Shown piece after piece: positions 61,561 through 63,290 of a DNA stretch of 64,000 nt (positions are counted from its first letter, which is position 1; every line of letters begins with the position of its first letter). The stretch comes from Candidatus Latescibacterota bacterium. Its GTDB lineage: Bacteria; Latescibacterota; UBA2968; UBA8231. Location of the stretch: positions 64,001-128,000 of the forward strand of contig OZ220089.1 of assembly GCA_964291625.2 (NCBI GenBank), read 5' to 3'. Position numbers and translations under genes: made by a program. Below the pieces are notes generated by a model that worked only from the letters and a program-made list of their open reading frames with translations, was not told the DNA's origin and made no database searches.

Positions 61561-62712
61561 CTAACCGTGGGGCAGGCGCATCTCCATCTCTTCATAGGGC
61601 AGGTGGATGGCGTGGGCGGCGACCAACTCCCCGTAGGGGCCGGCCGTGTGCCTCGCAACCTCGAGAGCCGTGTCGACGGCCCCCGTCTCTCCGCGGACGA
61701 CGCAGGCGGTCAGGAAGTAGCCAACCTTGTAACGGCCCTCGTAGGTCACGTCGGCGTGCTTGAGCATCTCGTCGAGGGCCTTGACGAGACCGGCGGTGGT
61801 GCGCGTCTCCACCAGACCCAGGGCGCGGCCTGCGAGGGTGCGCGCACCGGGAGACTCGCTCGCCCGGGCGAAGCAGGCCATCACTTGCGGATCCGGACCG
61901 CCGATCACCACCTGCCCCTCCAGCTCCGCCGTCTCACCGGCCCGGCGAGCGCCCTCGGCGACGGCGGCGCCGACCTCGTCCAGGGATCCGGAGGCAATCG
62001 CCGCCACGCGGCCACCGCTGCCGATCGTCAGCCGCGCCAGGTCGACACGCCCTCCCTTCACCATGCCGTCGACGGCGGCCACCGAGCCCGCGTATCCCGT
62101 GGCCTCGACGATCCCTAGAGCGGCCGCGGTGAGTGGGTCGCCCGGGGGAATGGAGGGCAGCAGGACGCCCACTTCGGCCTCCGGTTGGGGCAGCACCAGG
62201 GCGCCGTGGAACTCCCCCGCCCGCCGGGCCGCCCCTTCCCCGGCCCGCACGGCCGCCTCCACCGACCCCACCGAGCCGCTGACGGTGGCATGCACCAGGG
62301 CGCCGCCGATGGAGGCCCAGCCGTGGAGCTCGACGGCGCCGGCCTTGACCATGGCGTCGGCGCCGGCGGCCAGGGGGACCAGGCCCCGCGTCTCCAGGAG
62401 GCCGATGGCCTGGAGGCCGGCCCTGAACTCGAGATCGGCGCCGAGGTGCGGCATCGGCTCGAGGGCGCCGGAGTCGGCCCCCGGTACGAGGGCCGCCGTG
62501 ATCACCTCTCCGTGGGCGGCGGCCGCCTCCCGCCCCGCGTCGAGGGCGGTGCGCGCGTCGGCCGTGGAGCCTTCGACGATCACGGTCAACCAGCCGGAGC
62601 CGATGCCGTGGCGTCCCCCCAGGCGCACGGAGGCCGCCTTGTGCATGGAGTCGAGGGCCGCCGCCAGAGCCGTCATGCCCCTGACCTCCAGGATGCCGAG
62701 GGCGCGTTCCAT
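61561..62712 (-). CDS. Bacterial microcompartment shell protein with four tandem BMC (Pfam00936-like) domains
   Basis: Four repeats starting ALGILEVRG / AIGLLETRG / ALGIVEATG / ALGLVETRT, each with a D-x-M-x-K motif; 383 aa; ATG overlaps the upstream TGA. Confidence 0.88.
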   Translation of the reverse strand: MERALGILEVRGMTALAAALDSMHKAASVRLGGRHGIGSGWLTVIVEGSTADARTALDAGREAAAAHGEVITAALVPGADSGALEPMPHLGADLEFRAGLQAIGLLETRGLVPLAAGADAMVKAGAVELHGWASIGGALVHATVSGSVGSVEAAVRAGEGAARRAGEFHGALVLPQPEAEVGVLLPSIPPGDPLTAAALGIVEATGYAGSVAAVDGMVKGGRVDLARLTIGSGGRVAAIASGSLDEVGAAVAEGARRAGETAELEGQVVIGGPDPQVMACFARASESPGARTLAGRALGLVETRTTAGLVKALDEMLKHADVTYEGRYKVGYFLTACVVRGETGAVDTALEVARHTAGPYGELVAAHAIHLPYEEMEMRLPHG

Positions 62713-63290
62713 CAGCCTGACCCGGCGGCCGGACGGAAGAGGAGGAAGGCCCGCAGCACCGACGGCTGGGGGCGCGGGATCACCGCCGCTGCCATGAACC
62801 ACTCGCTGCCGCCCAGCCTCTCCCGGCCGCGGCCGATGGCCTGTTCGACGGCGTCCACGGCCCCGGTGATCAGGCTGCAGACGACCCGGTCGTGCACGGT
62901 GAGGACGTTGGCCACGGCCACATCGGCGGCCTTCGCCATGGCGTCGTTCACCTCCACCTGGACGCCGTACCCCCGGGTCTCGATCAGGCCCAGGGCGCCG
63001 GCCTCGACCTCGCCCGCGGGAAGGGGGCAGCCGACGAAGCCGGAGCACTCGGGCTGTGGCTGATCGAGGCAGGCGCCGACGACGTGGCCGGTGACGGCGC
63101 CGGCCGCCGCCTCGCCTGCGCGCAGGGCGGTGCTGACATCACCGAGGGGGCCGCGCAGGAAGAGGGTGGTGAACCCGCCGATCGACTCCCATCCCATCAG
63201 CTCGACCCGCGCCGCCTTGCAGGCCGCGTCAGCGCCGACGACGATACCCGCGACTCCCTCGACCTCGATCATCCCCATGGCGTCGGACAC
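62712..63290 (-). CDS. Bacterial microcompartment shell protein with two tandem BMC domains
   Basis: AMGMIEVEG...ADAACKAA and ALGLIETRG...NDAMAKAA...VIPRP. Confidence 0.9.
   Translation of the reverse strand: MSDAMGMIEVEGVAGIVVGADAACKAARVELMGWESIGGFTTLFLRGPLGDVSTALRAGEAAAGAVTGHVVGACLDQPQPECSGFVGCPLPAGEVEAGALGLIETRGYGVQVEVNDAMAKAADVAVANVLTVHDRVVCSLITGAVDAVEQAIGRGRERLGGSEWFMAAAVIPRPQPSVLRAFLLFRPAAGSG

Follow-up and report, generated by a model that had tools for sequence, protein, structure and literature searches.

We analyzed a 64,000-nucleotide (nt) stretch of the genome of a Candidatus Latescibacterota bacterium (bases 64001-128000 of contig 1; here, the window), in which two overlapping genes encode shell proteins of a bacterial microcompartment (BMC). 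Here, we will refer to the two-domain product of the upstream gene as P and to the four-domain product of the downstream gene as Q. Our analysis indicates that P and Q probably combine into a 1:1 heterodimeric, fully asymmetric pseudohexamer. Both the heterodimer and the topology of its ring are predicted from models of the complex, and we infer that the resulting tile enters the facets of a shell. A 1:1 heterodimer had been proposed in a first-pass annotation of the same DNA on the arithmetic that two domains plus four make six; genetics, phylogeny, and controlled structure prediction now support that proposal, at the level of prediction. The features concerned are the following.

62712..63290, minus strand: P, two-domain BMC shell protein, 192 amino acids (aa); open reading frame (ORF), translation, and two PF00936 matches
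61561..62712, minus strand: Q, four-domain BMC shell protein, 383 aa; ORF, translation, and four PF00936 matches
62710..62714, minus strand: TGATG stop/start overlap of P and Q (translational coupling); sequence

The coordinates and the count of four plus two domains agree with the first-pass annotation, and both genes lie on the minus strand. A Pfam scan with PF00936, which that annotation had recommended, found four stretches in Q (E value of 1.1e-61, 205.2 bits) and two in P (E value of 1.3e-31, 108.8 bits), against a cut-off of 24.5 bits. The domains span approximately residues 4-76 (P1) and 99-172 (P2) of P and residues 3-77 (Q1), 102-175 (Q2), 198-271 (Q3), and 297-369 (Q4) of Q. Several finer points of the earlier description also stand: the TGATG overlap that couples the genes is present in the sequence, there is no Met between the second and third domains of Q (none at residues 122-216), and the six edge motifs (DAACK, DAMAK, DSMHK, DAMVK, DGMVK, and DEMLK) are exactly as listed, as are the six differing pore-loop strings, judged from both the translations and their conservation. 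Pairwise identity among the six domains is just 24-45%, which marks Q as an ancient fusion and rules out a repeat that was collapsed or duplicated.

The start codon of P is GTG, with GAGGA 8 nt upstream and the stop codon of the preceding gene 4 nt upstream; in-frame ATGs 12 and 18 nt inside the gene leave its exact start uncertain. Q starts with ATG. The longest ORF in the Q frame reaches an upstream GTG at 63048, but this extension overlaps P in another frame. Because of this overlap, and because homologs begin at the ATG, we set the start of Q there.

A four-domain ORF could in principle be an artifact, either a mis-assembled or a frameshift-fused pair of two-domain genes. We found nothing in favor of this explanation and consider it refuted, since Q is conserved across genomes. 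A search of 5.8 billion proteins with Q returned 123 matches at an E value of ≤1e-10. Among the 120 matches listed, 112 are four-domain ORFs of 365-404 aa that cover 92-100% of Q at 45-91% identity, and a 382-aa cluster of the ESM Atlas has 457 members. Within the phylum, Q is present in 80 of 168 genomes (E value of ≤1e-60) as a single uninterrupted copy each; a stop inside the four-domain ORF, a possibility raised in the first-pass annotation, occurs in none of these 80 genome matches. The low identity of the domains to each other (24-45%) likewise speaks against an artifact. The homologs whose records are named come from metagenome-assembled genomes of Gemmatimonadota or Latescibacterota, and where the source names the proteins, the labels are generic ("BMC domain-containing protein," "CcmO," or "CcmL/EutN").

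We then asked how closely P and Q are tied to each other. An ortholog of P is present in 84 of the 168 phylum genomes, including all 80 genomes with Q, and in no genome of this set does Q occur without P. The four genomes with P only are assemblies of 660-980 contigs each, and in two of them (G095 and G044) P lies no more than ~750 nt from the start of its contig, on the side where Q would be expected. To compare gene order, we used 77 related loci from a scan that took one genome per species, with domains called by a hidden Markov model built from the family's own BMC domains and run on all stop-to-stop ORFs. Whether four-domain genes regularly sit beside a two-domain gene had been put forward earlier as a check, and they do: in 75 of the 77 loci, the ORF immediately preceding Q, on its own strand, encodes two BMC domains. 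In the remaining two (L066 and L076) the start of the contig cuts the gene, such that pairing cannot be judged; a further locus, L077, is cut at the contig end. The gap between P and Q is -8 to +30 nt in 74 of the 75 loci and 175 nt in one, values that depend on the choice of start codon.

One locus departs from the usual division of domains. In L060 (2666-4431, plus strand), Q is split 3+1: a three-domain ORF stops within the linker between Q3 and Q4, and the fourth domain is a separate ORF that begins with an ATG 4 nt later. The resulting 2+3+1 arrangement still adds up to six domains. This split may be a sequencing frameshift.

To place the six domains relative to each other, we built a maximum-likelihood tree (quick search, 79 columns) of 158 single domains from 17 of 78 loci that were picked for spread. 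Each of the six positions forms one clade, with the following support in the Shimodaira-Hasegawa-like approximate likelihood ratio test (SH-aLRT): P1, 100; P2, 100; Q1, 98; Q2, 92; Q3, 99; and Q4, 99. These clades are apart from the two domains of ordinary BMC-T proteins (SH-aLRT of 97 and 92) and from BMC-H, and the stems of P1 and P2 extend 0.89 and 1.45, respectively, away from ordinary BMC-T. Q4 groups with BMC-H (SH-aLRT of 87), while the deeper branching of the tree is not resolved.

The positions also differ in their loops while sharing their edges. The edge Asp-x-x-x-Lys of BMC domains forms the contact between one tile and the next, and 73 P/Q pairs keep this Asp and Lys at every one of the six positions (99-100% conservation). 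Each position also has, in these pairs, a conserved pore loop of its own: GWESIGG in P1, LTVH(N/D)RVVC in P2, GRHGIGSGW in Q1, GWxxIGGAL in Q2, IGSGGR in Q3, and EGxYKVGYFLTA in Q4. The pore-loop positions thus hold a conserved His and Arg in P2 and a conserved Tyr in Q4. Taken together, the separate clades and the position-specific loops indicate that the architecture, and the identity of each position within it, were fixed before these lineages diverged.

Structure prediction points to a ring in which P fills the gap left by Q. AlphaFold2 modeled Q alone, from a 73-row alignment, with a predicted local distance difference test score (pLDDT) of 91.5 and a predicted template modeling score (pTM) of 0.90, the latter indicating a defined mutual arrangement of the four domains. 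In this model, DSSP assigned the unpermuted order beta-alpha-beta-beta-alpha-beta (E-H-E-E-H-E) four times, each followed by a short helix. The spacings between domains are 22-25 residues and are alike in P, in Q, and in the ordinary BMC-T of the locus. Using Foldseek, two consecutive Q domains superpose on 6ner, a synthetic tandem fusion of BMC-H, with a target-normalized template modeling score (TM) of 0.87-0.90 and a root mean square deviation (rmsd) of 2.0-3.8 Å over ~180 columns. Natural BMC-T chains fit Q one domain at a time (TM of ~0.41 and rmsd of ~15 Å as two-domain units). Among 57 sequence matches with solved structures, none has more than two BMC domains per chain.

We next considered the complex of Q with P. 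Modeling of the 1:1 pair, which had also been suggested as a check, passes its controls: the prediction scored 0.80 (0.80, 0.82, and 0.79 in individual runs), versus 0.12 for the best of three controls. The mark for this score had been calibrated on 80 solved complexes, of which 58 reached it, and on 110 mismatched pairs, of which 2 did; these counts are only roughly valid here because we supplied the alignments ourselves. The runs share at least 91% of their contacts, and the pLDDT of the partner is at least 89. Confident interface residues of Q are confined to the stretches 5-89, which covers Q1 with the tail that follows it, and 304-361, within Q4; P contributes such residues from both domains. 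The 25 pairs of lowest error comprise 14 between Q1 and P2 and 11 between Q4 and P1, with none crossing, and P contacts neither Q2 nor Q3. This is the pattern of a closed ring in the order P1-P2-Q1-Q2-Q3-Q4, not of a stack.

These results suggest the following model. P and Q would be produced together from their overlapping genes and then assemble 1:1 as a single hexagonal shell tile. Q would form an open arc of four ring neighbors, and P would close the two-domain gap, with P1 against Q4 and P2 against Q1, to give the ring order predicted above. Because all six domains differ, such a tile would lack internal symmetry; no two of its edges would be the same, and six distinct loops would line its pore. 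Since the canonical Asp and Lys are kept on all six edges, it should nonetheless fit into facets beside the BMC-H and BMC-T proteins of the locus.

A different way to satisfy the arithmetic is for P to form ordinary BMC-T homotrimers and for three Q chains, with twelve domains among them, to build two pseudohexamers, either stacked face to face or placed side by side, with Q linking the two tiles covalently; a stacked double ring of three Q chains was the alternative named in the first-pass annotation. P does have the standard two-domain BMC-T layout, the pTM of Q is also compatible with a fixed stacked arrangement, and double-stacked trimers occur in the BMC-T^dp class, as described in the 2021 catalogue of microcompartments (Sutter 2021, PMC8217296). 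This arrangement would leave unexplained why P is an obligatory neighbor of Q (75 of 77 loci) and is inherited with it (80 of 80 genomes), and why the stems of P1 and P2 reach so far from ordinary BMC-T. In the complex model, P sits between Q1 and Q4 and touches neither Q2 nor Q3, the spacing between Q2 and Q3 equals the spacings between ring neighbors, and the Q domains are not circularly permuted, unlike those of BMC-T^dp. On balance, we regard this arrangement as unlikely.

Several observations weigh against the 1:1 heterodimer. P alone has an ordinary trimer-forming BMC-T architecture, and the arc shape of Q alone is taken from contacts in the complex model and is not seen directly. Solved structures include many rings of BMC domains; the predictor might set any BMC tandem into the gap, and the success of the complex prediction may partly reflect its memory of such rings. 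The controls were unrelated proteins and did not include the BMC-T or BMC-H of the locus; what the result shows is a BMC-like fit of P to the gap and not a preference for P over other BMC proteins, which rests on the genetics. Covariation between the chains (mutual information with average-product correction over the 73 pairs) gave no signal at an effective number of 24 sequences: among 25 predicted contacts, seven pairs were variable and one of these lay above the 95th percentile, which is no enrichment, and the top 200 pairs were scattered across all combinations of domains, an outcome that speaks neither for nor against the heterodimer. Finally, no natural six-domain fusion of P and Q was present in the 77 loci or among longer proteins, although a blank in the latter search is weak evidence.

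A search with P among longer proteins returned four matches, three of which are ordinary Q proteins. The fourth, P0123, a public gene call of 411 aa, was considered as a possible fusion of P and Q and rejected as a frameshifted gene call, in which P is followed by an out-of-frame stretch, part of Q, and again an out-of-frame stretch.

If the gap in Q accepts BMC domains in general, two BMC-H subunits (4+1+1) or any other BMC domains might close the ring, and P would be one filler among several. The genome has three BMC-H genes (one at the locus and two satellites), Q4 groups with BMC-H in the domain tree, and the 2+3+1 architecture of L060 would suggest that the ring tolerates other partitions. 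The L060 split could, however, be a sequencing frameshift, the invariant neighbor of Q is P and not BMC-H, and P is still adjacent to Q in the ~15 loci that have no BMC-H or BMC-T within 6 kb. We consider this possibility distinctly improbable.

We compared the predicted P/Q heterodimer with known shell proteins. In its main text, the 2021 catalogue recognizes six types of shell protein, all of them symmetric homo-oligomers whose chains contain either one or two PF00936 domains (Sutter 2021, PMC8217296). Shell proteins with more than two domains are not mentioned in the available portions of that catalogue, of an earlier survey (Axen 2014, PMC4207490), or of the Latescibacteria paper (PMC4454575). 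A literature search of open full texts likewise returned no described BMC protein with three, four, or six domains and no heterodimeric pseudohexamer. A 2+4 shell tile does not seem to have been described previously, although P/Q proteins may be among the entries of the trees and locus lists in Supplementary Data 1-2 of Sutter 2021, perhaps under BMC-T^s.

P and Q are members of the BMC shell domain family, but as a unit they are neither BMC-T^s, BMC-T^dp, nor CcmO. BMC-T^s proteins, such as PduT and BMC-T1 of Haliangium ochraceum, similarly have nonpermuted PF00936 domains head to tail and build a six-domain pseudohexagon; P has exactly their two-domain layout, and chains of PduT and of the H. 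ochraceum BMC-T are among the Foldseek matches to Q. The class is defined as a two-domain fusion that forms a homotrimer with 3-fold symmetry (Sutter 2021, PMC8217296). P has these two domains whereas Q has four, and the P/Q tile is predicted to be an asymmetric heterodimer. BMC-T^dp proteins (CsoS1D/CcmP) are also tandem-domain shell proteins, and they build a twelve-domain object; the same catalogue describes circular permutation of their domains and a stack of two separate trimers (Sutter 2021, PMC8217296). In contrast, the domain order of Q is unpermuted, and the P/Q model is a single ring.

The best match to Q in both sequence (E value of 7.7e-32) and fold is 6ner, the synthetic BMC-H tandem fusion from the H. 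ochraceum shell. Like Q, it consists of concatenated units that can still tile a shell, and its two units are ring neighbors. Unlike the P/Q pair, which is natural, divided 2+4, and built from six different domains, 6ner is an engineered chain of two identical domains that assembles as a homotrimer. The CcmK3-CcmK4 heterohexamers of the beta-carboxysome offer another parallel, as hexagonal tiles made from more than one gene product. These are assembled from single-domain paralogs, reportedly in variable stoichiometry, whereas the stoichiometry of P and Q would be fixed at 1:1, with each of the six positions defined. CcmO, a beta-carboxysome assembly protein, is the best NCBIfam match of both P and Q and lends its name to some homologs. 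We rejected this identity, as Q (185.5 bits) and P (71.7 bits) both score below the 270-bit equivalog cut-off of NF053792.

If the heterodimer is real, it would represent a seventh shell-protein architecture, a natural and conserved hexagon of four plus two domains, and the first tile whose six positions are all genetically distinct. A pore or face that lacks symmetry can recognize one individual protein or a ligand that is itself asymmetric; tiles with 3- or 6-fold symmetry cannot do this one to one. The family would make questions about the selective permeability of shells and the placing of cargo testable. It would also be of use in engineering, since six individually mutable positions and edges are the aim of artificial fusions such as 6ner. 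The family is common in the phylum, as its presence in 80 of 168 genomes and the Atlas cluster of 457 members indicate.

The genes that flank P and Q are themselves conserved. Directly upstream of P is a gene for a protein that we call X, and directly downstream of Q, beginning 12 nt past its stop codon, is a gene for an aldolase-like enzyme of the DHDPS family.

63295..63777, minus strand: X, 160-aa protein of no known family, directly upstream of P
60343..61548, minus strand: DHDPS-family (class I aldolase-like) enzyme; PF00701, E value of 1.4e-59, residues 80-356

An X homolog is directly upstream of P in 56 of the 73 loci with enough upstream DNA, and a DHDPS-family enzyme is directly downstream of Q in 66 of the 71 loci with enough downstream DNA; the distance criterion used for these neighbors misses at least L016 and L060. 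In 15 loci (L010-L014, L016-L022, L024, L025, and L027), P, Q, and the aldolase occur together without X, BMC-T, or BMC-H within 6 kb. The P/Q pair of these loci keeps company with the aldolase though parted from the other shell genes.

X has no Pfam match even at an E value of 10 and no fold match in the PDB at an E value of ≤0.001 (best, 0.11). Its homologs (L002-L078) are ~150-165 aa long and share an N-terminal domain with a conserved TP-x-x-WDY-x-R motif, followed by a linker, a nearly invariant Cys-rich region, and a C-terminal amphipathic helix. The AlphaFold2 model of X has a folded N-terminal domain (residues 1-53, pLDDT of 84-95) and a helix at residues 140-159. The Cys-rich region, in which five Cys are conserved at ≥90% and one is invariant around an invariant EEFGSG, is modeled at low confidence. 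The C-terminal helix looks like an encapsulation peptide.

The aldolase carries an N-terminal extension of ~75 aa (residues 1-75) whose sequence weakly resembles the N-terminal domain of X; phmmer searches with X match the aldolase ORF or its counterparts across loci at E values of 1e-4 to 1e-9. Judged from sequence, the domain common to X and the aldolase may be a targeting or docking domain, and the X-P-Q-aldolase cassette hints at docking. A tentative extension of the asymmetric tile, which we think has only a modest chance of being correct, is that it serves as an addressable single-copy site for docking or gating. Lacking symmetry, the tile would present exactly one binding surface or one shaped pore, with this surface recognized by the ~50-residue N-terminal domain of X and the aldolase. 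If so, a signature enzyme would be placed at a defined shell position by means of a domain, unlike the known encapsulation peptides, which are amphipathic helices.

The same cassette, and the N-terminal domain common to X and the aldolase, could also be read as signs that P and Q are a scaffold or adaptor, in or outside the shell, whose BMC domains organize cargo without forming a facet tile. A free adaptor would have no need of the edge Asp and Lys, which are 99-100% conserved at six positions in P and Q, and we consider this role very unlikely.

P and Q belong to a larger locus in a genome of 5.9 Mb with 69.5% G+C. The locus runs beyond the end of the window and was studied as L001, in which a coordinate equals the window coordinate minus 56000. 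All of its genes share the minus strand and are given below as they are transcribed, first those ahead of X, in L001 coordinates, and then those that follow the aldolase, in window coordinates.

L001 11714-12016, 11457-11750, and 11170-11460, minus strand: three BMC-P genes (PF03319); Pfam
L001 10616-11173, minus strand: ordinary two-domain BMC-T; Pfam
L001 10336-10602, minus strand: BMC-H; Pfam
L001 8901-10325, minus strand: aldehyde dehydrogenase (acylating type); Pfam
L001 8580-8897, minus strand: fourth BMC-P (PF03319), between the PduL and aldehyde dehydrogenase genes; Pfam
L001 7870-8583, minus strand: PduL; Pfam
59224..60324, minus strand: FAD-dependent oxidoreductase (DAO family), next in the operon after the aldolase; PF01266, E value of 1.6e-63
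58202..59143, minus strand: second, divergent DHDPS-family protein, with a Met start chosen; PF00701, E value of 2.8e-08

P and Q thus share their strand with pentamer and cargo genes, namely, four PF03319 genes, BMC-H, BMC-T, an aldehyde dehydrogenase, and PduL. The aldehyde dehydrogenase and PduL mark the locus as a metabolosome and not a carboxysome, and P and Q are additional to an ordinary hexamer and an ordinary trimer. With four pentamer genes, the locus exceeds the "BMC-P triplet" of the 2021 catalogue (PMC8217296) by one gene.

Eleven BMC-domain matches are present in the genome, nine at the main locus and two in distant single-domain satellite BMC-H genes (G000 C2:608532-608759, minus strand, and C1:3586026-3586253, plus strand), one of which is on the second contig. 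The enzyme set of the locus comprises two DHDPS-family proteins, a DAO-family flavoenzyme, an acylating-type aldehyde dehydrogenase, and PduL. The combination of a DAO-family enzyme with a DHDPS-family deaminase resembles the hydroxyproline pathway, which leads to the aldehyde 2-oxoglutarate semialdehyde; another option is a 2-keto-3-deoxy-acid aldolase that releases an aldehyde.

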